The notes beneath the pieces are model-generated. The model was given only the letters and a program-made list of their open reading frames with translations. It had not been told where the DNA came from and did not search any database. Source: an uncultured archaeon (lineage in GTDB: Archaea > Aenigmatarchaeota > Aenigmatarchaeia > CG10238-14 > SCSR01). From it: DNA of 64,000 nucleotides. The DNA lies in the NCBI GenBank assembly GCA_964400475.1, contig CAYNTH010000003.1, positions 3,283 to 67,282 of the forward strand, written 5' to 3'. The position numbers and the translations under genes were made by a program. Shown piece by piece: positions 23,581 through 59,576 of this stretch. The stretch's first letter is position 1; every line of letters begins with the position of its first letter.

Positions 23581-23663
23581 GCCGAGGTCGCATAATCAGG
23601 TAGTGCACCAGCCTCGAAAGCTGGCGTCCTTTGGACATCTGGGTTCAAATCCCAGCCTCGGCG
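23581..23663 (+). tRNA. tRNA-Ser (anticodon CGA), class II with long variable arm
   Basis: Hand-folded. Acceptor GCCGAGG/CCTCGGC, anticodon stem CCAGC/GCTGG with loop CTCGAAA, variable stem GTCC/GGAC, T arm CTGGG-TTCAAAT-CCCAG. No encoded CCA. Confidence 0.9.
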
Positions 23664-36309: not shown

Positions 36310-36573
36310 TTATTCACAGAACCCTCTTATTTCATTCACGAGTCTTTCAATATTCTGTAATCTGGCGTTTATTGCCTCGTGCTGTATTCTCATGTTTTCG
36401 ATTTGAGAGTGGATTATCTCGACCTCCGCTTTTAATCCTGACATGTTGTCGCTCTTTGTAATTGGCGTTGTACTTAATTCCCGCGTCGCACTTCTTCTTT
36501 CTGGCAATCGTGGGTCATCGAGTGTCGATTTTTTTCTCGTGAACAATCTTTTTATCCTATCTATTATTCCCAT
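36310..36573 (-). CDS. Hypothetical small coiled-coil protein
   Basis: 87 aa with a C-terminal heptad-like helix. Confidence 0.35.
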   Translation of the reverse strand: MGIIDRIKRLFTRKKSTLDDPRLPERRSATRELSTTPITKSDNMSGLKAEVEIIHSQIENMRIQHEAINARLQNIERLVNEIRGFCE

Positions 36574-36635: not shown

Positions 36636-37235
36636 ATGCACCCAAAAACATACTTAGAACATTTTTATGATTATGAGGATGAACTGAGGAACAGAGCTGA
36701 AAAAACCGGCATAACAATTACTGTTTCTGGTCCTTCTTCATCGGGAAAGACCACAATATGTAAGGAATTATCCGATAGATTTGGTCTGAAGTATGTATCG
36801 GCTGGTAAGATATTCAGGGAATATGCGAAGGAAAGAAATATGCCGATTGAAAAATTTTCCAAAGTTCGTGATAAGATCGTGGATTATGAGATAGACAAGC
36901 AGACATTGAAAGAAGCCATGACAGGTGGTTGTGTAATGGATGGCCGGCTGAGTGGGTGGGTAGCTGGGGATTGGGCTGATATTAAGATATACGTAGAGTG
37001 TAACGCTGTTACAAGAGCTAAAAGGTATTCTAAAAAGATGGATATTGACTTTGAAGATGCGCTGAGGAAAATCGAAAAAAGAGACAAACATGATAATGGA
37101 AAGTATCTAAAATTATACGGTGTTGATTTGTTCGACAAATCGATATATGATGTAATAATTGTTAACGAGAGCATGTCAATCCGTGAATTCAAAAAAGTTG
37201 CAATTGAGAAAGTTAAAGAGCTTTTGGACGAATGA
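36636..37235 (+). CDS. cmk: Archaeal-type cytidylate (CMP) kinase
   Basis: ITVSGPSSSGKTTICKELSDRFGLKYVSAGKIFRE, DGRLSGW. Confidence 0.75.
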   Translation: MHPKTYLEHFYDYEDELRNRAEKTGITITVSGPSSSGKTTICKELSDRFGLKYVSAGKIFREYAKERNMPIEKFSKVRDKIVDYEIDKQTLKEAMTGGCVMDGRLSGWVAGDWADIKIYVECNAVTRAKRYSKKMDIDFEDALRKIEKRDKHDNGKYLKLYGVDLFDKSIYDVIIVNESMSIREFKKVAIEKVKELLDE

Positions 37236-37236
37236 T

Positions 37237-38025
37237 TCAATATTTTATCAATGTCCCTATTTTTTCACCTAATATGGCCGATTTCAAGTTATTCGGTTTT
37301 AATCCGTTGATTATTTGGCAGGTTACACCCATTTTGGATATCTGCAACAGCTTTTTCACTTTATTTTTCATCCCACCGGTAACGTCCGGTACATCTATTG
37401 AGAAATTAACACCATTTATGTTATCTTTGGTAATAATCTCGATTATATCGGAATTAGGGTTATGTTTAGGGTTCTCCCTAAATATCCCGTCAACATCTGT
37501 TGCCATTATGATTTTATCTGCTTCCCATCTTTCGGCTAATTTAATCGCCAAGTCATCACCCGATATTATTTTGCCGTTAATGTCGTCTCCATACACGGAT
37601 AATATCTTCCCCTCTTCCAGTAACATTTCTGTTATCTCCCATAGATAATCTATATTGAGGTCTTCACCAAAGCTACAACTTTTGGACGGTGATATCGGAA
37701 CAATTGGTAGATTTAATTCCCTGAGCTCTTCAACGAATTTTTCATTTAGATGTCTAACGGATTCGTTTATATCTTCGTGTGGAACACCATGTTCGACTAA
37801 AAAATGACCAAAAGGACCTGCACCATTTATAATGATTAATTCTATATTGTTGGAGCTTAAAGCGTCTTTAATCTCATTACCGAGTCTCTTGACAACCTTT
37901 TTTCTTATGTACCTGTTGGATTTCTTCTTGATTTCTCCTATATCCAGTGGGAAGTCATAAACATCTTTTTCAGTGATTAGCGAGCCGCCTATTTTGATAA
38001 TAATCTTTTGTTTCATTTCATCCAC
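37237..38025 (-). CDS. ipk: Isopentenyl phosphate kinase (amino-acid-kinase fold)
   Basis: IIKIGGSLITEK, INGAGPFGH, ATDVDGIF. Confidence 0.8.
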   Translation of the reverse strand: MDEMKQKIIIKIGGSLITEKDVYDFPLDIGEIKKKSNRYIRKKVVKRLGNEIKDALSSNNIELIIINGAGPFGHFLVEHGVPHEDINESVRHLNEKFVEELRELNLPIVPISPSKSCSFGEDLNIDYLWEITEMLLEEGKILSVYGDDINGKIISGDDLAIKLAERWEADKIIMATDVDGIFRENPKHNPNSDIIEIITKDNINGVNFSIDVPDVTGGMKNKVKKLLQISKMGVTCQIINGLKPNNLKSAILGEKIGTLIKY

Positions 38026-38039
38026 CGAAAATAGAAAAA

Positions 38040-38600
38040 TTAGCGACCTGGTCTTACACCTGCCCCGGTCAATTCGGGTGTTTCATAAGACATTCCCAAT
38101 TCCTTCCGTATAGCATCCACAAATTTGTAAGTCCGTTCCTGTAGTATCTGTATGTATCTCCTTCGAGTTTCCGTGTATATCAATTTGTGATAAGACCATA
38201 CAAATGGCATTCCTATAATCTTTTCAAATTTGTTGTAGAATTTATATTCTGTTGTTATTTCTGGTTTTATTTCCAAATATATCTTTCCATTCGGGTCATT
38301 TGGATCAGAAGGCTGCATACCAAATGCCTTTATCTTTATTTCAAATGTCGTGAATTTATCGAATTTATCGTCGCCGTATTTTAATTTGAAATAAAATTCT
38401 CTAGGATCGGTTGTGATATCCCATTTGAAGCTCTCTTCGAAAATATTTTTACCTTTACCATGGAATATTTTTTTCATCAATCCAGGTAGCATTAGATAAA
38501 TTCTAAAAGGGTTAGGCCCGTTGTATTCTATTTTTACTTTATCTTCGGGCGCAAGTACATAATCGAATATCTTATATGTTTTTTTTGCCTTTTTAGCCAT
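38040..38600 (-). CDS. Uncharacterised protein, paralog A of a tandem pair
   Basis: 186 aa. Shares the ordered blocks (E/S)Y(N/S)GPNP, FKWD, DKF and TEY with 38649..39182. Confidence 0.55.
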   Translation of the reverse strand: MAKKAKKTYKIFDYVLAPEDKVKIEYNGPNPFRIYLMLPGLMKKIFHGKGKNIFEESFKWDITTDPREFYFKLKYGDDKFDKFTTFEIKIKAFGMQPSDPNDPNGKIYLEIKPEITTEYKFYNKFEKIIGMPFVWSYHKLIYTETRRRYIQILQERTYKFVDAIRKELGMSYETPELTGAGVRPGR

Positions 38601-38648
38601 TTATACCAACTAATAATTGGTCTTATCTTAATTTATTTTTAGTAAAGT

Positions 38649-39182
38649 CTAATATCTGGATTTTACAAGTAGATTGAAAAATTCCTTTAGCTCATTTTGG
38701 ATTTGTAAAATCTCATCTCTACACTCCATTATCCATTCGTATCTTTTTTCCCTGTAGAAGAATTTATGATATAATGTTCTAAACATCTCATAGAAGAAGC
38801 TTCTTTCCCATAACGTGTCTTGAGGATATTCCGTTCTTATCATTCCTCCTATAGAAAATTTAACAGACCCCTCCTTTTCGAAATCTTCGCTGGGCTTGAC
38901 AGTTCCACTCATCGAAATTTCGAGATACATATAGCTGAATTTGTCCAAATCTTTTATTATTTCGAAAGATGCCTTGAATTTTTCTTCTGGTTTGGATCTA
39001 TCCCATTTGAATCCTTTTTCTTGTATATTCTCTCTGGGTATATTCAGACTTCTAGTTAGTATATCTATTAATTTAGGATATGCCTTATCTGGATTAGGTC
39101 CGCTATAGCTGAATTCTATTTTCGGACTGTACGTGAGGCAACGGTCTTCAAGTAAAAGTTTTGATCTGGCAAATATAGGCAC
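38649..39182 (-). CDS. Uncharacterised protein, paralog B of a tandem pair
   Basis: 177 aa. See paralog A. Confidence 0.55.
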   Translation of the reverse strand: MPIFARSKLLLEDRCLTYSPKIEFSYSGPNPDKAYPKLIDILTRSLNIPRENIQEKGFKWDRSKPEEKFKASFEIIKDLDKFSYMYLEISMSGTVKPSEDFEKEGSVKFSIGGMIRTEYPQDTLWERSFFYEMFRTLYHKFFYREKRYEWIMECRDEILQIQNELKEFFNLLVKSRY

Positions 39183-39242
39183 TTAATCACACTCTAATAC
39201 ATTTTTTATTAAAACAGCTATTAATATATAATATAGATTAAC

Positions 39243-39401
39243 ATGATCAGAATAATAATCGGTGCTATAGTTTCTTTGTTGGGGCTACTGATGCTTATAT
39301 TCGGTCCGGGGGGTCGGGGACAGATAGATGCCTATGGTAATACAGCCAGGTTGATAGGTTTTATATTGCTGGTTATAGGTGTGTTATTGATTAAATTATA
39401 A
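39243..39401 (+). CDS. Candidate 52-aa two-TM micro-protein
   Basis: Manual translation: MIRIIIGAIVSLLGLLMLIFGPGGRGQIDAYGNTARLIGFILLVIGVLLIKL. Lies directly upstream of the 589-aa ORF. Confidence 0.3.
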   Translation: MIRIIIGAIVSLLGLLMLIFGPGGRGQIDAYGNTARLIGFILLVIGVLLIKL

Positions 39402-39414
39402 TCCAGGTGATTGT

Positions 39415-41184
39415 TTGGGAAGCGCTATATCTACATTGCATAAAAAGAAAGAGGTTAGAGCTGGTCATACACCTGATTGGCCTGTTAGTGAAGGTGCATT
39501 TGCAATAGAGGGCGAGTTATATCATATTTGTCCCCTTAGCGCGAGTAAAAATAATATAAATTTCACATCCTTTCCAGGAAAGTGTAGTGGCACCCTATTT
39601 AGCATGATGTTCTGGTTGGGTAAAGCCGGGTATGATATTTTTAAGATAGACGATGCAATGGAAGTATCACCGTTGGATGCAAAATATTACCAGATTACCA
39701 TACAGCAAAAACAAGCATTGGAAAGACAGATAAAAGAGGGGTTGGCCGGTATATCATCTGCTATAAGCGATTTCGAACTGTTGTTCCATGATCTGCGCCA
39801 GTATAAGGATTTCCTAGATTATTTTAGGGACCGGGATTTGGCAATCAGGACCGATAATGATGAATTGAAGGAAAAAACCGAACAGAGCCTGAAATCCATA
39901 TTCATAGATCAGGTGGATGTTCATACTGGCGAAGGCGTGGCATTAAAATTGATTGCGCCCAGATGGCCTACAATAATATCGGATTTCATGAAATTGGACG
40001 ATGTGGATGTTTCGCCAGAGAAGATATCCAATAAATACAGAGTTTCCGAAGCGGAAGGGGTTGTTTTGGCAACAAAAAATAAACTTTATCAGGAATGGAG
40101 AGATAGTTTTGAGAAGGTCGTGAAAGAGAGGTATAATAGAATATTAAGCCAGGTAAAAGCACGTAAATTCTCTATAGACGAGTACAAGAAGATGCTGAAA
40201 CCTTATGTTGAAAGATACCAGTCAATACATGAAGCTACGAGAGAACGAAGTGGTAGGAGCAAGTTGAGACAATTATCTTGGTTGAAGCCTGGTGCACAAG
40301 CGTCGTCTTTTGATTGGTCGACAATATGGGCATTTAAGACATTGGGCAGAGCTGAGCCAGACAGACTTTCATATGAAGCACCTAGTGGAAAAGAAAATAT
40401 ACTTAAAATTCCCTTTTGTTCAAGTTTCAAGAACGTTATAAAAAAGAATATTGACTATTTGAAAAATGAAGGATTGGGTGAGTTAAAACTTTCATCAACA
40501 GGTATAGAACCGTTTGATAAATGGGTATGGGCGCTCTACAAATACATAGAAGATTACTATACCGATAAATATGGATTTACGATAAGATTTAGCTTGAAAG
40601 AACTTCTAGACATCCGGAATGATTTTATATCTGGATGGGGCGGCGAAGTCGAACCTTATTACAAATGTTTTGATATAGGAGTTGACAGAGTTATCATAAG
40701 ATTGCCCGATGGTACCGAATTGGAGGATATGACATTTGATCCTCTTTATTGTTTTTTTGAAACACAGAATATGATGCTTTTACGCCTTATAGAGGTTAAG
40801 GCAAAGGATAAAGCGATGGAGAGATATTTGGATGAAATGATTGGAGATACTACAAAAAATAAGAAAATGGATGAGTTGGTAGAAGAATACGAAAAATTAT
40901 TCGGTGAATACGGTTCGAATTCTACACTGGAAAAAGATTATGGTGTTGCCAGCGGACAGTATTTGAGAAATGAGCGAGAAAAAGCACAGTCTCAGGTTAT
41001 GAAGGAAGTCACACAGATGAGTAAACCATACAAAATTATCAAGAAGGGCGATTATGAACCCAGATTCGACGATGTTATAACTGGTCCTTATTTTACGGAT
41101 GTCGGCGGTACCAATGTAAAGCTGTGGAACTTTTTGAAAGCCAAGTTCGATGTGCCGGGTTTCGGGATTAAAGGTTTGAAGTGA
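39415..41184 (+). CDS. Large uncharacterised protein (589 aa)
   Basis: Long ORF with a TTG start 4 nt after CCAGGTGA. No P-loop, TM segment or metal-cluster motif recognised. The stop abuts the next ORF. Confidence 0.6.
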   Translation: MGSAISTLHKKKEVRAGHTPDWPVSEGAFAIEGELYHICPLSASKNNINFTSFPGKCSGTLFSMMFWLGKAGYDIFKIDDAMEVSPLDAKYYQITIQQKQALERQIKEGLAGISSAISDFELLFHDLRQYKDFLDYFRDRDLAIRTDNDELKEKTEQSLKSIFIDQVDVHTGEGVALKLIAPRWPTIISDFMKLDDVDVSPEKISNKYRVSEAEGVVLATKNKLYQEWRDSFEKVVKERYNRILSQVKARKFSIDEYKKMLKPYVERYQSIHEATRERSGRSKLRQLSWLKPGAQASSFDWSTIWAFKTLGRAEPDRLSYEAPSGKENILKIPFCSSFKNVIKKNIDYLKNEGLGELKLSSTGIEPFDKWVWALYKYIEDYYTDKYGFTIRFSLKELLDIRNDFISGWGGEVEPYYKCFDIGVDRVIIRLPDGTELEDMTFDPLYCFFETQNMMLLRLIEVKAKDKAMERYLDEMIGDTTKNKKMDELVEEYEKLFGEYGSNSTLEKDYGVASGQYLRNEREKAQSQVMKEVTQMSKPYKIIKKGDYEPRFDDVITGPYFTDVGGTNVKLWNFLKAKFDVPGFGIKGLK

Positions 41185-41196
41185 TTGGTGTTATTT

Positions 41197-43098
41197 ATGA
41201 CAGATGATAAATTGAAATTCAGTGTTGGGGTGTCCAGTGGAATATATGGTGCTGCACGTTCACCCGAATTGGGTTCTATAGTACGTAAACTGGGGTTTTC
41301 GCTTACACGCGGGACGAAGTCAATAGAATTGGCCGGTGATGTTCCTCATGAAATAGATTATACCCAGGGAAATGAACTCAGATACATCGCTGAAAAACAG
41401 AATTTGACATTGCTGTTTCATGGTTCGTTGACAGTACATATGTGCATGCCGGAACGGGGGTCATGGAGGGATGCACAGAATCATATTGAGAAGTCTGTAA
41501 AATCTGCTGTTATGGGTGGCTGTAAATATGTCAATTTCCATTCTTGTCTAAACTATTGGCTGGAGATGATAACATATGCCGGACGCAAACTCTCGCTTTC
41601 ATTTTGTGATCATGAAGGTAAATTTATTTCTGATATATTATATGAAAATGAGTATCTGAGAGAGTGGTTTATTGATGAGAAAGGAATGGACTATTTAAGG
41701 GATATTCTTCCTCGAGAAACGATTAGTGAAGCCAGTTCGAGAGCAAGTGCAAGTGCTAGTGAATGGAGGAGTGAAGAAATCAGAAATAGGTTGCTCGGTA
41801 TTGGTTTGACACAAGACCAGATAGAACGTATAATAAATCAAGGATTCTTTCCAGAGGGAAGAGAGGAAGAAGTTAGAAGTATAATATCGAAAGTGAATGA
41901 AGAATATGCTGGTATAACTTCAAAATATGAAGTGAGAGAACTCAAGGCTGAAATTAGGAAGAAGCTTGGGAATCCAGATGAATCTGAAAGAGAATGGGAG
42001 AGCAACGAGTTACGGGCTGTTGTGGGCGTTATAGATGGATATCATATTATTGCTCATTATTTGTACTATGAGAATGATCCTATATGGAAAATAATGTATG
42101 AGATGTACAAAGACGTGATTGAGGGCGAATACGTTGAACTGGAATATTTAAAGAAAGGCAGAACTTACAAATATGGGTCATTTTCATCTGCTGATCCAAG
42201 GGATGTAGATTATTGGCTTGATGCTGCATGGGAGAAAGCCGAGAAATACAATGATCGAGAATTTAAAGAATTTTATTATTCTGTTTGCGCCGCCAAGTTC
42301 ATAGAGGGACATATGAAGAAAACAATCAAATGGGTTGAGGGTGAGGGTCCGAATAGTTTGATGTCGGAGATAAAAAGGGTTGTTAAAGATGAAGATGAAC
42401 AAGAAAAACTGAAAAAAATAGCAGACGAGCTTAAAATCACTCTGGAAATACCCGATGCGAGATCTCCCGAATATGCAGGTCTTTATTTAATTTGTAGGCC
42501 TAAACAGATATACGCTTCTGTTAAAGCATTGAGAAAAAAAATGAATACAGATAAGGTTTCTATATTAATAGATTTTGAACATATTGCAACTCAAGGATTT
42601 GATCCCTTGCACGAAATAAGAGAATTTGTGAAGCTTGCACCCGATGCTGGTAAATACATATTATCTTTGCATGTAACAAAACCTACCCCATTGCATCATC
42701 ACATACAAGTTGAGATAGGTGATGTTGAAGTTTACAAACTTTTATGGGAACTTGTTGATAAAGCGGAGCTAGGTAAACACCACTTGACTTATCTGATATA
42801 TGAGAGAGGGGGCGAACGAGATCCGTACAAACAGAGTGTAACAGCATTGAAATTGATGGTCGACCAGTTGAATAAAAGAACTCCTCCAGATGAATTAATT
42901 GCAAAACCAGAATTTTTCGGTGTTGCTGGCCCAACATTAGGTTCAGAAGAGAGGCAAAGGGTTATAATATCAGAACATACAGAGGATCCACTGGAAGGCC
43001 TGTTGATTACTACAGAGGAAAGCCATACATTCCTGGGAAGGGCCGCCACTTCTAAGGGGTCCACCCCAGATAAATGGAAAAAGGAGGAGCTCAAATAA
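41197..43098 (+). CDS. Xylose-isomerase/endonuclease-IV-like TIM-barrel protein with a large internal insertion
   Basis: N-terminal part: SVGVSSGIYG...IELAGD...LLFHGS...KYVNFHSC. C-terminal part: ILIDFEHIATQG...LSLHVTKP...LIYERGG. The ATG at 41197 is preferred over the track TTG at 41185. Confidence 0.55.
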   Translation: MTDDKLKFSVGVSSGIYGAARSPELGSIVRKLGFSLTRGTKSIELAGDVPHEIDYTQGNELRYIAEKQNLTLLFHGSLTVHMCMPERGSWRDAQNHIEKSVKSAVMGGCKYVNFHSCLNYWLEMITYAGRKLSLSFCDHEGKFISDILYENEYLREWFIDEKGMDYLRDILPRETISEASSRASASASEWRSEEIRNRLLGIGLTQDQIERIINQGFFPEGREEEVRSIISKVNEEYAGITSKYEVRELKAEIRKKLGNPDESEREWESNELRAVVGVIDGYHIIAHYLYYENDPIWKIMYEMYKDVIEGEYVELEYLKKGRTYKYGSFSSADPRDVDYWLDAAWEKAEKYNDREFKEFYYSVCAAKFIEGHMKKTIKWVEGEGPNSLMSEIKRVVKDEDEQEKLKKIADELKITLEIPDARSPEYAGLYLICRPKQIYASVKALRKKMNTDKVSILIDFEHIATQGFDPLHEIREFVKLAPDAGKYILSLHVTKPTPLHHHIQVEIGDVEVYKLLWELVDKAELGKHHLTYLIYERGGERDPYKQSVTALKLMVDQLNKRTPPDELIAKPEFFGVAGPTLGSEERQRVIISEHTEDPLEGLLITTEESHTFLGRAATSKGSTPDKWKKEELK

Positions 43099-43146
43099 AT
43101 CACTACTGATAAGTGATGGATATCTTTAAATAACAAGTCCCAATAA

Positions 43147-44019
43147 ATGATATATATGTCCCCAAAGAAATCGAATTCTAGCAAAGATCTTGAAGAATTA
43201 GAAAAGGAACTAGGAGAAGCAAGTTTAGCAGTTAGTGAAAACGATTTCGACAGCGATTCCAAGAGAGAAATAATTAAGAAAGTGATAAAGTTCACCAAGG
43301 TATCTAAAAAACAATATGGCGATATTGTGAAATCTGTTCTTATATTTGGATCAGCTGCCAGGGATAAGATGAAAAAGAACTCTGATATAGATGTATGGGT
43401 TGTGTTGGACGATACTGCTGCAAAAAGCACATCCGATTTCGATAAGGTCAATAAGCATCTTCACCTCATAGCACATCAGCTCGAGGATTTGCACATACAA
43501 ACGACTAAACTGACTCAGTTTTGGAAATGGATGAAGATGGGTAGTCCAGAACTTGTTAATTTTTTGAGATATAGCCTGCCGATATATGACACGGGATTCA
43601 TTAAACCAATAAAGAGGATGCTTGAGATGGGGTTATTGCCTCCAAGTGATGAGACTATAAAATTGAAAGCTAAGTCTTCCCAGGCTAGGATGAAAAAGAT
43701 AGAACTTGATATAAAATCTATGGTGTTTGAATTGAGATACTCTACTTTGGATATTTGTCAGTCAGTTGCCATGAGTGTATATAAAGAACAGCCGGATGCC
43801 AAAGCAGTGCCAAATTTCCTGAAGAAATTGGTAAAGGATGGTAAGCTCGATAAGAAATATGTTAAGAAGTTCAAGGAGTTGAATAAATTGTGGAAAGATA
43901 TCGATCACAAGAAGGTAAAGGAAATAGATGTTGAATACTTGAAAAACGCGATGGAACTGGCAAGGGATATACAGAAGAAGATGATGGAGCTTTTGCCCAA
44001 AGAGGTTGTAAGCGAATAA
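43147..44019 (+). CDS. Nucleotidyltransferase (MNT-type) fused to a helical HEPN-like domain with a degenerate Rx4H
   Basis: LIFGSAARDKMKKNSDIDVWVVLDD. At the position where the paralog has RKKIEH, the C-terminal helical region reads WKDIDH. Confidence 0.65.
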   Translation: MIYMSPKKSNSSKDLEELEKELGEASLAVSENDFDSDSKREIIKKVIKFTKVSKKQYGDIVKSVLIFGSAARDKMKKNSDIDVWVVLDDTAAKSTSDFDKVNKHLHLIAHQLEDLHIQTTKLTQFWKWMKMGSPELVNFLRYSLPIYDTGFIKPIKRMLEMGLLPPSDETIKLKAKSSQARMKKIELDIKSMVFELRYSTLDICQSVAMSVYKEQPDAKAVPNFLKKLVKDGKLDKKYVKKFKELNKLWKDIDHKKVKEIDVEYLKNAMELARDIQKKMMELLPKEVVSE

Positions 44020-44031
44020 TTTAGTGATATT

Positions 44032-45219
44032 ATGGCAAAGAAAAAGAAATCCAAGAAAAAGAAGAAAAAAGGTCTTAAGACAAAGAAGGCTCGGATGAAA
44101 GAAGTTAAAAAATTCAAAGAGAAAGTTCTGGATAAATACGGGGAAATCGTTAAAACTATCGTAGTGATGGGTTCCGTTGCTAGGGAGGAATTCAAACCAG
44201 AAAGTGATATAGATGTTTTTGTTGTTATAGACGATACTAAAGAGAAACTATCTAAACAAAAACACGATGAGATAAACGCTACTCTGGAGAGAATGGCCAA
44301 GGATATATCGAAGTCAGGTGTTTTGTCGATACAGCCAACTTATACACTGACCGAGTTTTGGAATTATGCCAGGGTCGGACATCCGATAATATACAATTTT
44401 ATCAAGGAGGGTGTTCCGGTATACGATGTCGGATTCTTTATGCCCATTAAAAGGTTGTTGAACATGGGCAAGATACCTTCCACGCGCGAAGCCATAGAGA
44501 GCTATATGGAAGGTGCGCCAAAGAAATTGATGAGAGCGAAGACGGTGAAGTTACTGATGTTGGCAGAGGATTGTTATTATGCTATGTTGAATACTACTCA
44601 GGCAGTCCTGATGTTCATGGGAGTCGAGCCGCCAGTCCCGAGCAAGGCGCATAAAGCTGTTCAGAAATATCTGATCGAACCCAAAATACTTGATGAGAAG
44701 TACGCTGATTGGTTGAAGGATATTATCGAACTACGGAAGAAAATAGAGCACAAGGAAATAATGGATGTAGAGGGTAGTTATGTGGATGAATGGTTGGGCC
44801 GGGCCGAGAAATATGTGGAGAAAATGTTCAATCTTTTGGGGGCATTGGAATTGCGTAAAAAGGAAAAAGTGCTTCAGAGAACACACGACGTCATGTATAA
44901 GGCGGCTATAACCGCGTTGAAGAGTTTGAAGAAGGAACCTGAGAAGGAATCAGAAATTCCAATCCAGTTCAGAAAAGAATTTATAAAAACCGATCTCATA
45001 GAGGGATATTATTGGGATATATGGGAACGGATTGAAAAGATGAAGGAAACCGTCGATGAAGATAAAAAGAATATAAAGGATATACCAGAGAAAGACGTTT
45101 ATCAGATGCGTGAGTACGTAAGGAAGATGATACGTGATTTAGCCAAGGCACTTAAGAAAAATGGTATAGAAAATACTGTTGACACTTTGCCTGATAATAA
45201 AAAGAAAAAAGAAGATTAA
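44032..45219 (+). CDS. Nucleotidyltransferase (MNT-type) fused to a HEPN-like domain (Rx4H present)
   Basis: Lys-rich N-terminus, VVMGSVAREEFKPESDIDVFVVIDD, then a helical domain with ELRKKIEHKE (R-x4-H). Confidence 0.65.
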   Translation: MAKKKKSKKKKKKGLKTKKARMKEVKKFKEKVLDKYGEIVKTIVVMGSVAREEFKPESDIDVFVVIDDTKEKLSKQKHDEINATLERMAKDISKSGVLSIQPTYTLTEFWNYARVGHPIIYNFIKEGVPVYDVGFFMPIKRLLNMGKIPSTREAIESYMEGAPKKLMRAKTVKLLMLAEDCYYAMLNTTQAVLMFMGVEPPVPSKAHKAVQKYLIEPKILDEKYADWLKDIIELRKKIEHKEIMDVEGSYVDEWLGRAEKYVEKMFNLLGALELRKKEKVLQRTHDVMYKAAITALKSLKKEPEKESEIPIQFRKEFIKTDLIEGYYWDIWERIEKMKETVDEDKKNIKDIPEKDVYQMREYVRKMIRDLAKALKKNGIENTVDTLPDNKKKKED

Positions 45220-46394
45220 TCTTCTTTAGATTTGTTTTCGACTTCTTCTTCTATACCGAGTCTATCTATCATTTCTTTGTATCTGTTCCTGATGGTGACT
45301 TCTGTTACACCCACTATATCAGCGACCTCTCTTTGTGTCCTCTTCTCTCCTTCAAGAACACACGCTACATATATGGCAGCCGCTGCGACTCCTGTAGGTC
45401 CTTTACCCGAAGTTATGTCGAATTTTTTGGCCTTTTTCAAAATTTCTATTGCTTTTGCTTGGACCTTATCACTCAGCTTCAACATAGAACAGAATCTTGG
45501 AACATAATCTGCTGGATCTGCCGGCAATATTCTTATATTAAGTTCCCTTGCAACATACCGATATGTCCTCCCGATTTCCCTTTTATCAACACCGCTAGCT
45601 TTCGATATCTCTTCTAGGGTTCTCGGCGAACCGAATTCTCGACTAATCGCATATGTCAATGCAGCGACCACAGATTCTATACTCCTACCTCTGACCAATC
45701 CCTTGTTAACAGCTTGTTCGTAATATCTGGCTATCCTCTCGTGCACAGGTCTGGGTAAATTCAAAAATGAGACTATCCTCTGTAGTTCGGATAATGCAAA
45801 TGACAAATTTCTATCCTTGGATTTTATTAGTCTTTTGTGCCATTTTGTGAGTCTATAATATTGTGCCCTCTTCTTAGCAGGTACCTTGTACAATTCTCCA
45901 AGGCCTTTGCCTATTTCAGTTGTCAATCCCTTGTCATGTTTTGTAAATGTCAACGGGGCACCTCCTCTCGCACGCCTCTTCATTTGCTCACTGTCGAATG
46001 CCCTCCATTCTTGCCCAGTGTCAACTATTTCTTCTTTGATAATTGCTCCGCATTTAGCACAGTATCTCTCTGCTCTGGAAGAATCCTCTATGAATTTTGT
46101 GCCACCGCACTCTGGACAGGCACCTGACTTTGTTTTAGAAGTTTTAGCTTTTTTCATAGCTTTCTTTTTGGGTTTCTTTCCTTTTTTACTTTTTCTTTTC
46201 TTGCCTTTCAGCTTTTCCGCTCTTTTCTGATATTTTTTAGCAGTTTCAACAGAAACGTTTAATTTGTCTGCGAGTGTTTCTGGATTCAATCTCAATAAAC
46301 TCTTGACAGTGGTCACCCTGCTCTTTTTCAGAACTTTGGCACTCTTCTTCCCTATTCCCTTAACCTTTGTAACTGGTATTCTTTTCTTAGCCAT
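45216..46394 (-). CDS. tfb: Transcription factor B (TFIIB homolog) with an N-terminal HhH module and Lys-rich linker
   Basis: Zn ribbon CPECGGTKFIEDSSRAERYCAKCG, B-reader/linker and two cyclin repeats. It is preceded by MAKKRIPVTKVKGIGKKSAKVLKK... and KGKKRKSKKGKKPKKK. The track ORF extends to 46430; ATG 46394 is preferred. Confidence 0.9.
   Translation of the reverse strand: MAKKRIPVTKVKGIGKKSAKVLKKSRVTTVKSLLRLNPETLADKLNVSVETAKKYQKRAEKLKGKKRKSKKGKKPKKKAMKKAKTSKTKSGACPECGGTKFIEDSSRAERYCAKCGAIIKEEIVDTGQEWRAFDSEQMKRRARGGAPLTFTKHDKGLTTEIGKGLGELYKVPAKKRAQYYRLTKWHKRLIKSKDRNLSFALSELQRIVSFLNLPRPVHERIARYYEQAVNKGLVRGRSIESVVAALTYAISREFGSPRTLEEISKASGVDKREIGRTYRYVARELNIRILPADPADYVPRFCSMLKLSDKVQAKAIEILKKAKKFDITSGKGPTGVAAAAIYVACVLEGEKRTQREVADIVGVTEVTIRNRYKEMIDRLGIEEEVENKSKED
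46212..46379 (-). repeat. HhH-module repeat copy 2 (5' end of tfb)
   Basis: Encodes IPVTKVKGIGKKSAKVLKKSRVTTVKSLLRLNPETLADKLNVSVETAKKYQKRAEK. Closely matches 14988..15179. Confidence 0.85.
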
Positions 46395-46572
46395 GATAAT
46401 CACATTTTTTGTTACTTCAAAGTGAAACAAAATTTCAAACTTATTTAACTATATACCAAAAGCTATTTAAATGTTTCTATATTTACAAGAATTTTGCATT
46501 CTGTTTTGGGTGTTCTGGGAAAAACAAAGAAATAAAACTATCCAGTCATAATTTTATTAAAGGTGTAATTTT

Positions 46573-54422: not shown

Positions 54423-54450
54423 TAGGATCAAACTATTTATCAAGATTTAG
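54423..54450 (-). promoter_or_regulatory. 3' arm of the pre-23S processing stem
   Basis: Complementary to 57563..57590 as 13 bp, a 3-nt bulge, 6 bp, a 3-nt bulge on the opposite strand, then 6 bp. Confidence 0.75.
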
Positions 54451-57562
<3,112 letters not shown>

Positions 57563-57590
57563 CTAAACCTCCTTGATTAGTTTGATCCTA
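57563..57590 (-). promoter_or_regulatory. 5' arm of the pre-23S processing stem
   Basis: The RNA TAGGATCAAACTAATCAAG-GAG-GTTTAG pairs with CTAAAT-CTTGAT-AAA-TAGTTTGATCCTA at 54423..54450. Confidence 0.75.
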
Positions 57591-59504: not shown

Positions 59505-59576
59505 TGGACCGACCGGGACTTGAACCCGGAGCCTCTTCCGTGCAAGGGAAGCGATCTACCATTGATCTATCAGCCC
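59505..59576 (-). tRNA. tRNA-Ala (anticodon UGC)
   Basis: Hand-folded. Acceptor GGGCTGA/TCGGTCC with the G3:U70 Ala identity pair, anticodon loop CTTGCAC, T arm CCGGG-TTCAAGT-CCCGG. No encoded CCA. Confidence 0.9.

Follow-up and report, generated by a model that had tools for sequence, protein, structure and literature searches.

What do two large, adjacent genes of an uncultured archaeon encode, and do their products work together? The genomes of Aenigmatarchaeota and related DPANN archaea are very small; these organisms are probably host dependent, and most of their lineage-specific genes are unannotated. We examined a 64,000-nucleotide (nt) stretch of DNA from a member of this phylum (contig CAYNTH010000003.1 of assembly GCA_964400475.1, positions 3,283 to 67,282 of the forward strand), here called the window, whose archaeal genes include those for 23S rRNA, TFB, histone, and eIF5A. 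A preliminary description of the window had pointed to two open reading frames (ORFs), here called A and B, as the core of an undescribed module. Our analysis revealed that A and B are the minimal conserved unit of a gene cluster that Aenigmatarchaeota and their relatives carry on the chromosome and inherit vertically, and that B, as judged from its predicted structure, is a TIM barrel of the xylose-isomerase/endonuclease-IV type whose architecture is new. The reading that we favor, and that we hold as tentative, is a membrane-tethered complex in which B would be a three-metal phosphoesterase and A its scaffold.

Proteins A and B as a conserved pair

The two ORFs lie one after the other on the same strand:

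39415..41184, plus strand: ORF A, 589 amino acids (aa), TTG start
41185..43098, plus strand: ORF B, 637 aa as a mechanical ORF; 633 aa from the likelier ATG at 41197

The TTG start of A had been placed 4 nt past CCAGGTGA, and this is what the letters hold: CCAGGTGA ends at 39410, and TTGT fills the 4 nt up to the TTG. The stop codon of A (41182..41184) had also been said to abut B, which is correct for the mechanical ORF. Two facts make the ATG at 41197 the probable start of B: it is preceded, at a distance of 6 nt, by GGTG, and NCBI lists a 633-aa product for this gene. The spacing is then 12 nt, not 0. Each of the two proteins has hundreds of homologs, more than chance ORFs would have.

How tightly are the two genes coupled? 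Relatives of A were found at 143 loci in species-representative genomes, and every named one is a metagenome-assembled genome (MAG) of Aenigmatarchaeota. ORFs were called in 84 loci and classified with profiles, and the counts of gene order given here refer to these. B directly follows A in 80 of the 84 loci, and the contigs of the other 4 end inside A or just after it. The gap between the two genes has a median of 0 nt and is no longer than 60 nt in 79 of 80 loci. Other Aenigmatarchaeota, as well as a Nanohaloarchaea MAG, have short forms of A (∼390 to 410 aa), and the gene downstream of these is a B homolog wherever it can be classified. Because this short-A subfamily also keeps B downstream, A plus B is the minimal conserved unit.

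Protein A belongs to an orphan family, in agreement with the preliminary description, which could place none of it. Neither a P-loop nor a CxxC or HxnH cluster was found in A, none of its segments is hydrophobic (the peak 19-residue Kyte-Doolittle window is ≤0.87), and the N-terminal strings that had been quoted for it are found in its translation. Searches of A against Pfam, NCBIfam, PHROGs, and PADLOC gave nothing consistent; the same was true of 49 family members scanned singly against Pfam, and a profile of A matched no PDB sequence. When 1.84 billion representative proteins were searched exhaustively with a profile, 234 clusters (50% identity) were returned, every one of which is this family. 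The AlphaFold2 model of A (predicted local distance difference test score [pLDDT], 81; predicted TM-score [pTM], 0.75) has an N-terminal beta-rich domain (residues 28 to 84), an antiparallel coiled-coil stalk (residues 89 to 270, with helices at 89 to 146, 149 to 170, and 212 to 270), an alpha/beta domain (residues 296 to 450), and C-terminal helices, much as the long helices and C-terminal globular part that had been guessed. Foldseek searches of this model against PDB and the viral structure library BFVD gave no match at an E value of ≤1e-3; what was returned was coiled-coil noise with TM-scores of ≤0.21, the weak matches being the coiled-coil stalks of SMC, dynein, and RipA.

Conservation within A is concentrated in one segment:

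39655..40224, plus strand: most conserved part of A, residues 81 to 270, stalk and distal tip

Mean column conservation is 0.56 to 0.85 in this segment versus 0.24 to 0.64 elsewhere in A. The segment contains the motifs FIDQVDVHTGEG, RWPTIIxDFM, and SEAEGVVLATKNKL, and it is the largest part of A that is kept in the short (∼400-aa) forms of the family. We regard the stalk and its tip as a candidate site for binding a partner or a substrate.

The barrel of B and its putative metal site

The preliminary description had read B as a TIM barrel interrupted by roughly 280 residues. All of the barrel motifs that it quoted are in the translation, and the AlphaFold2 model of B (pLDDT, 85; pTM, 0.84) gives a TIM barrel whose halves are separated by ∼295 residues:

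41218..41547, plus strand: B barrel strands 1 to 4, residues 12 to 121, with the invariant residues E56, H79, and H119
41548..42432, plus strand: B insertion, residues 122 to 416, helical
42433..42873, plus strand: B barrel strands 5 to 8, residues 417 to 563, with E421, D463, H466, H496, H504, H506, and E540
42874..43095, plus strand: B C-terminal tail, residues 564 to 637

Strands 5 to 8 themselves are modeled at residues 417 to 539. Foldseek searches against PDB matched B to ketose 3-epimerases, xylose isomerases, and endonuclease IV with a probability of 1.0, and TM-scores relative to the target were 0.55 to 0.69 across many PF01261-type barrels, those for ketose 3-epimerases and endonuclease IV being 0.6 to 0.69. 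The lowest root mean square deviations (6.0 to 6.4 Å) belonged to the endonuclease IV entries 1qtw, 1qum, and 8rly, with TM-scores of 0.67 to 0.69. At the level of profiles, intact window B reached 17.9 bits against PF01261 (AP_endonuc_2), under the 31.1-bit cutoff, and 25.3 bits (E value, 1.5e-5) once the insertion was removed; 16 of 17 insertion-deleted members matched the same family, the best with an E value of 4.7e-12. PF01261 is on record for most B homologs, the window copy itself being below the cutoff, and it was the only barrel family found at an E value of ≤0.1 or ≤0.01; DUF692 (PF05114) was unmatched. A profile of insertion-deleted B searched against PDB sequences gave no barrel match and no endonuclease IV. 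The predicted fold, together with the PF01261 matches obtained once the insertion is removed, places B in the xylose-isomerase-like superfamily.

How does B vary? The 75 full-length B proteins fall into three types, B0 (42 sequences), B1 (21), and B2 (12, including that of the window), with identities of 27 to 31% between types and ∼48% within a type. Most of the insertion is modeled with a pLDDT above 90. It comprises a charged helical hairpin at residues ∼163 to 280, which is the most variable part of B (cross-type conservation, 0.03 to 0.3), and conserved segments that carry G145, W161, Y286, and G375-H376. Across the three types, no segment of B is better conserved than the C-terminal tail (mean column conservation, 0.55 to 0.73), which is present also in the distant 499-aa B homolog of locus L086. 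From residue 581 onward the tail has the lowest confidence of the model (pLDDT, 37 to 54). A tail that is conserved yet modeled with low confidence suggests a peptide whose folding depends on a conserved partner; it is thus a candidate docking peptide, for which the stalk tip of A would be the obvious partner.

Two further observations concern the parts of B. A profile of full-length B searched against PDB sequences gave only one weak match, of the insertion to the N-terminal domain of the primase large subunit, PriL (E value, 0.014; 17 bits; 65 residues). This match, which spans 41581..41775 of the window (B residues 133 to 197) with the motif DHxxxFI...LRxWF, was judged to be spurious because the His of "DH" is conserved in no B type; no PriL structure was among the top Foldseek matches of B. 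In locus L089 (11263..13116), from a complete ∼875-kb Aenigmatarchaeota genome (CP066684.1), the B homolog has an N-terminal glutaredoxin domain and is followed by a 470-aa nucleotidyltransferase (NTase) and a Trm1-like methyltransferase, with mevalonate-pathway genes ∼5 to 7 kb upstream.

Does B have the residues of a catalytic site? Plausible His, Asp, and Glu metal ligands had been suspected in B, and conserved candidates are present. We confirmed that the Escherichia coli nfo sequence carries H69, H109, E145, D179, H182, H216, D229, H231, and E261, the nine residues that hold the three zinc ions in the published structure of endonuclease IV. When Nfo was added with MAFFT to the alignment of insertion-deleted B, 7 of the 9 ligands paired with H79, H119, D463, H466, H496, H504, and H506, with H79 and H119 of B aligned to H69 and H109. 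A direct comparison of B with E. coli Nfo by hhalign gave the same register for four ligands, but the match was not significant (probability, 0.5%). For the remaining two, E145 and E261 of Nfo, B offers by position E421 and E540, one at the end of predicted strand 5 and the other at the end of predicted strand 8.

These candidates are strongly conserved. Eleven residues (E56, H79, H119, G145, W161, G375, E421, D463, H496, P500, and H506) are invariant in the 75 B sequences of all three types, and H376, H466, and E540 are conserved in at least 90% of them. H504, the equivalent of D229, is His in types B1 and B2 and Ala or Gly in B0. In all B types, then, 8 of the 9 endonuclease IV ligand positions are held by an invariant or near-invariant His, Asp, or Glu. 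The conserved residues of B thus appear, in the alignment and the model, to reproduce the three-metal ligand set of endonuclease IV. Single-metal epimerases need only a Glu-Asp-His-Glu set. B conserves further His residues, which speaks for a multi-metal site like that of endonuclease IV. We prefer to read B as a three-metal phosphoesterase.

Could B instead be a one-metal isomerase, epimerase, or dehydratase of sugars or sugar phosphates, as its JGI label has it, with A an unrelated neighbor or a regulatory partner? The best Foldseek E values of B are to D-psicose/D-allulose/D-tagatose 3-epimerases and xylose isomerases, its homologs are named "sugar phosphate isomerase/epimerase" in databases, and the Glu-Asp-His-Glu set of the epimerases is contained in the conserved residues of B. 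However, B keeps H79, H119, D463-x-x-H466, and H506 besides, and these are presumably unneeded by single-metal epimerases and form metal sites 1 and 3 in endonuclease IV. Strict coupling to A, a conserved tail, and a membrane peptide encoded ahead of A would also be unexpected for a soluble metabolic enzyme, and no sugar-metabolism genes are conserved beside the pair. We consider a sugar isomerase unlikely.

A vertically inherited cluster and the exchange of B

Which genes accompany the pair? The conserved cluster consists of S87, P186 and P177, TM52, A, B, and two paralogs with NTase and HEPN-type domains, NT1 and NT2. The members other than A and B are as follows:

36310..36573, minus strand: S87, 87 aa, N-terminal amphipathic segment and C-terminal coiled coil
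38040..38600, minus strand: P186, 186-aa orphan, paralog of P177; the profile matches both window genes
38649..39182, minus strand: P177, 177-aa orphan, paralog of P186, divergent from the A-B operon
39183..39242, no strand: divergent intergenic region, 60 nt, AT-rich, containing TTTTTATTAAAA and ATTAATATATAATATAG
39243..39401, plus strand: TM52, 52 aa, two transmembrane helices and a short loop, heading the plus-strand operon
43147..44019, plus strand: NT1, 290 aa, pol-beta superfamily NTase (PF01909) with a helical C-terminal domain
44032..45219, plus strand: NT2, 395-aa NTase; C-terminal domain HEPN/HepT-like, N-terminal tail Lys rich

A block of unassigned genes had been delimited at 38040..45219. 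Such a block exists, but it is larger than described, adding the 52-aa ORF at 39243..39401 and the 87-aa ORF at 36310..36573. The proposal of an undescribed module with conserved synteny fared well: the pair is strictly syntenic, the upstream paralogs keep their place beside it, and the NTase-HEPN genes usually do so. Neither A nor B gave a confident match to an unrelated housekeeping family.

On the minus strand, P177 is present in 79 of the 84 loci and P186 in 75 of them, with a median gap of 4 nt between the two. Homologs of S87 were found by jackhmmer in 62 loci and lie directly downstream of P186 in 55 of these, so that S87 is usually the last gene of a P177-P186-S87 operon. In the lineage of the window, a cytidylate kinase gene and an amino-acid-kinase-family gene (36636..38025) are inserted between P186 and S87; the latter is probably an isopentenyl phosphate kinase gene. 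P177 had no match in Pfam, NCBIfam, PADLOC, or PDB, and a joint alignment of P177 and P186 (60 sequences) had none in Pfam or PDB. A relationship of these two proteins to a domain of A or B was rejected (hhalign probability, <1%). The promoters of both operons would lie in the 60 nt between P177 and TM52.

On the plus strand, TM52 homologs lie upstream of A in 74 of the 84 loci, with a median gap of 25 nt (13 nt in the window). The peak 19-residue Kyte-Doolittle window of TM52 is 2.66, and its family alignment consists of two hydrophobic helices and a conserved FP..YQPE loop. Pfam returned for TM52 and S87 only subthreshold coiled-coil or noise matches. We rejected TM52 as a precursor of a ribosomal peptide, since it is a conserved two-helix hairpin without Cys. 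Loci L002 to L004 have a second ∼50-aa ORF ahead of TM52.

NT1 lies downstream of B in 56 of the 84 loci, with a median B-NT1 gap of 64 nt and a range of up to 2.7 kb, and several loci have unrelated genes inserted between B and NT1. NT2 likewise follows B in 56 of 84 loci; it does so directly in 4 of the 5 loci that lack NT1, which are those with TFB moved. The two are paralogs (the NT2 profile matches NT1 at 6e-47), and both are basic (isoelectric point [pI], 9.3 to 9.4). NT2 is kanamycin-nucleotidyltransferase-like, and 5 of 27 members have a HepT-like domain. An archaeal CCA-adding enzyme was considered for NT2 and set aside, as 27 members gave no tRNA_NucTransf2 match; a single NT2 homolog matched this family weakly, in the N-terminal NTase core only. 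In locus L092 (10146..12373, minus strand), an NT2-like gene has moved away from B and lies beside the gene of another PF01261 protein, 294 aa long, which matches nfo weakly; at least this genome therefore encodes two barrel enzymes of this superfamily. This arrangement suggests that the NTase and a PF01261 barrel are recurrently linked.

Is the cluster part of the chromosome, or does it move? The outer housekeeping genes, ABCE1/RLI, cytidylate kinase, TFB, histone, and eIF5A, are often conserved around the cluster across divergent genomes, and where they have moved in some clades, the cluster stays intact. Its position is fixed in ∼80 loci from different species, unlike the patchy distribution of a mobile element, and its G+C content is ordinary for the window, across which G+C is uniform. 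A, P177, P186, NT1, and NT2 codiverge, with pairwise identities that correlate at Spearman coefficients of 0.41 to 0.88. The MAG JAWCME01 has two complete copies of the cluster, TFB included, in L012 and L019, whose A proteins are 46% and 37% identical to that of the window; these are probably two organisms in one bin and not a duplication.

Several features of the surroundings stand apart from the cluster. The TFB ORF of the window (45216..46430, minus strand) is 404 aa long versus 315 to 346 aa in related loci, and its N-terminal extension is Lys rich with a helix-hairpin-helix-like motif, VKGIGKKSAKVL; the N-terminal extension of a halophile-like A homolog, P0370, also looks helix-hairpin-helix-like. 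The 23S rRNA gene (54446..57568, minus strand) has no adjacent 16S gene within the window, and there are two tRNA genes, at 23581..23663 (plus strand, 83 nt) and 59505..59576 (minus strand).

Against this background of shared inheritance, does B follow its neighbors? The identities of B correlate poorly with those of A, P177, P186, NT1, and NT2 (Spearman coefficients, 0.17 to 0.37). The effect is seen in single comparisons by BLASTP. Between the window and L008, A is 61% identical over its full length (761 bits), and B matches over its last 233 residues only (37%, 118 bits); between the window and L083, A is 37% identical (319 bits) and B 47% identical over its full length (512 bits). When the type of B was mapped on neighbor-joining trees of A, NT2, P177, or P186, it required 9 to 10 changes, compared to a minimum of 2 and to 22 to 28 with shuffled labels. 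No mosaic A that tracks the type of B was found; the exchange is confined to B. Tandem B paralogs as a source of the types were rejected as well, because none of the 80 loci carries two full B genes. On the basis of these comparisons, we conclude that B was repeatedly replaced in place, or that ancient alleles were sorted, while its neighbors were inherited vertically.

Replacement in place, as it appears from these sequences, is one conflict-like feature of the cluster. Could the cluster then be an antivirus or conflict system, with B as a nuclease effector, A as a sensor or scaffold, and the NTase-HEPN proteins as a signaling or toxin-antitoxin component? The preliminary description had called the block defense flavored. 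Three findings lean this way: NT1 and NT2 match generic NTase models of PADLOC candidate systems and models of the MntA/HalB type, all below the cutoff; B has been swapped in place at least nine times, a pattern common in conflict genes; and some loci have PIN/MazE genes and further NTase-HEPN pairs in the vicinity. However, the core proteins gave no defense match, with A, B, P177, P186, and TM52 unmatched in PADLOC (PADLOC-DB 2.0) and in PHROGs. The cluster occupies one contig per genome in 143 species genomes, a single MAG having two loci, and is fixed among housekeeping genes. A viral origin was also rejected, as no relative of A was found in IMG/VR contigs. NT2 is 60 to 72% identical over the compared loci, except in the most divergent ones (42% in L070), and TFB is 69 to 85% identical; NT2 is thus nearly as conserved as TFB, unlike fast-evolving toxin-antitoxin genes. 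The fixed housekeeping position and the absence from viral contigs, together with the ordinary G+C content and the codivergence described above, argue against a defense island, and the earlier characterization is not supported. The cluster is a chromosomal, vertically inherited feature and not a mobile island, and we think it improbable that its function is defense.

Proposed mechanism and comparison with known systems

How might the members of the cluster act together? In the membrane-tethered complex that we favor, B would be the catalytic subunit, with its active site on the C-terminal face of the barrel. The 295-residue insertion would cap this site and contribute at least one conserved His (H376). 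A would be a noncatalytic coiled-coil scaffold or specificity subunit, and the conserved tail of B would dock onto the conserved tip of the A stalk. Docking of this kind would explain why B types can be exchanged with A unchanged. TM52 would tether the A-B complex to the membrane, and P177, P186, and S87 may be further subunits or substrates.

What would such an enzyme act on? The substrate that we favor would be a nucleic-acid phosphodiester, in the cleaning of 3′ ends or abasic sites, with the reaction coupled to the adjacent NTases. We lean this way because of the endonuclease-IV-like site, the conserved and basic NT1 and NT2 with the Lys-rich tail of NT2, and the NT2-like gene found beside the 294-aa PF01261 protein in L092. 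A phosphodiester of a membrane phospholipid or glycan would be a second option, which we retain because TM52 is a membrane peptide and because A and B have an acidic pI.

A number of points weigh against this proposal. The A-B complex, the docking of the tail, and the tethering to the membrane are all drawn from gene order and conservation. The correspondence of ligands rests on motif and strand position in the alignment and model. The nfo model (TIGR00587) matched neither B nor any of 17 insertion-deleted members at an E value of ≤0.05, and sequence similarity between B and endonuclease IV is not significant (hhalign probability below 1%, with an empty PDB profile search); as far as its sequence goes, B is not a member of the endonuclease IV family. 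By Foldseek E value, B is closer to ketose 3-epimerases (1.6e-4) than to endonuclease IV (1e-2), and the position of H504 (D229 in Nfo) is Ala or Gly in B0, which is the commonest type. The pI values of A (6.2) and B (5.6) are acidic, whereas the neighboring proteins that bind nucleic acids are basic. The synteny of NT1 and NT2 could simply mirror the frozen gene order of small genomes.

The small ORF ahead of A invites another question. Do A and B form a two-component oxidative modifier of proteins or peptides, like the DUF692 pairs MbnB-MbnC and TglH-TglI, that acts on TM52, P177/P186, or S87? The multinuclear nonheme iron enzymes of DUF692 have a three-metal layout like that of endonuclease IV, and those of the MbnB type combine the same barrel with a need for an adjacent partner and a small substrate ORF alongside. 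That resemblance speaks for the idea, as does the colinear order of TM52, A, and B, which is that of a small ORF, a partner-like gene, and a barrel. On the other hand, Pfam matches B to PF01261 only, with PF05114 unmatched, and no MbnB or TglH structure is among the best 50 Foldseek matches. TM52 is a two-helix hairpin with no Cys and no organization into leader and core. At position 466, B has His, as does endonuclease IV, and the MbnB residue would be Asn. Finally, by their sample names, many of the organisms that carry the cluster come from anoxic groundwater or sediment, where O2-dependent chemistry would be unlikely. We regard an oxidative modifier as quite improbable.

A mainly structural or membrane-remodeling assembly, with coiled coils from S87, A, and the B hairpin, TM52 as anchor, and B as a structural component, would suit the coiled-coil-rich nature of 3 of the 6 orphan products, the small membrane protein at the head of the operon, and the Foldseek matches of A, all of them coiled-coil stalks (SMC, dynein, and RipA), but it is very improbable, since the putative catalytic residues of B do not vary among types that are only 27 to 31% identical, which argues for an active enzyme, and since no similarity to ESCRT-III, PspA, dynamin, or other known remodeling proteins was found.

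We return to the tethered phosphoesterase and what it would mean. A broader idea, possible but doubtful, is that the cluster encodes a lineage-defining machine of Aenigmatarchaeota and Nanohaloarchaeota: a membrane-anchored coiled-coil assembly, made of S87, P186, P177, TM52, A, and B and perhaps of NT1 and NT2 too, that would display a three-metal enzyme open to exchange, so that the swaps of B would be adaptations to external substrates such as host lipids or nucleic acids. If its role were the processing of host-derived molecules or a lineage-specific repair of nucleic acids, the cluster would offer a direct entry to the biology of Aenigmatarchaeota. A cluster of six to eight genes, present in nearly every sampled member of the phylum, is now defined; confident predicted models are available for both large proteins, and the new barrel architecture with its predicted endonuclease-IV-like three-metal site provides a mechanistic handle. 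The exchange of B with the active site and the candidate docking tail kept is also a clear natural case of modular subunit replacement.

How does this cluster compare with what has been described? We found no described system that covers the A-B pair in Pfam, NCBIfam, PADLOC, PHROGs, or Foldseek searches, and no description of the pair in the literature. As judged by profile searches, 5 of the 6 core families, all but B, have no detectable relatives. What is new is the architecture of B on a known barrel superfamily, the orphans A, P177, P186, S87, and TM52, and the assembly as a whole. The closest mention is a module specific to Aenigmarchaeota (Module 128), which is given as "completely lacking functional predictions" (Castelle et al. 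2021, PMC8204110). The families of the A/B cluster fit that description and may belong to the module, and the passages that a term search of the paper returned mention no gene cluster, structure, or variation of B type.

For NT1 and NT2 only, the known relatives are the kanamycin-nucleotidyltransferase-like and MNT-HEPN proteins, which likewise carry a PF01909 NTase domain ahead of a helical domain that is HEPN/HepT-like. In NT1 and NT2, however, the domains are fused in proteins of 290 to 395 aa with Lys-rich tails, fixed beside the pair and below all named NCBIfam cutoffs. MbnB-MbnC and TglH-TglI offer a working analogy, in that a three-metal TIM barrel is encoded with an adjacent obligate partner and a small ORF; their partners are unrelated to A, and the small ORF here is a Cys-less membrane hairpin. 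The PF01261 sugar isomerases (D-psicose 3-epimerase, L-ribulose 3-epimerase, and UlaE) share the fold of B, with Foldseek E values of 1.6e-4 to 1e-2, as well as their Glu-Asp-His-Glu metal ligands. B differs from them in having five further conserved candidate His ligands, the insertion, the tail, and the partner gene, and in surroundings without a sugar-metabolism context.

The comparison that bears most directly on our preferred reading is with endonuclease IV (Nfo/Apn1), a three-zinc apurinic/apyrimidinic endonuclease and 3′-diesterase, also of PF01261. B is known here from its sequence and predicted structure and leaves the nfo model unmatched. Compared to endonuclease IV, it has ∼295 residues inserted between strands 4 and 5, His in place of Asp229 in B1 and B2 and loss of this ligand in B0, the extra residues E56 (invariant) and H376 (≥90% conserved), a conserved 75-residue C-terminal tail, and the constant partner gene A. 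What the two share is the (beta/alpha)8 superfamily fold and, in the predicted layout of B, the order of ligands along the barrel: strands 3 and 4 each bear a His, strand 5 a Glu, strand 6 a D-x-x-H motif, strand 7 a His with an X-x-H loop after it, and strand 8 a Glu.

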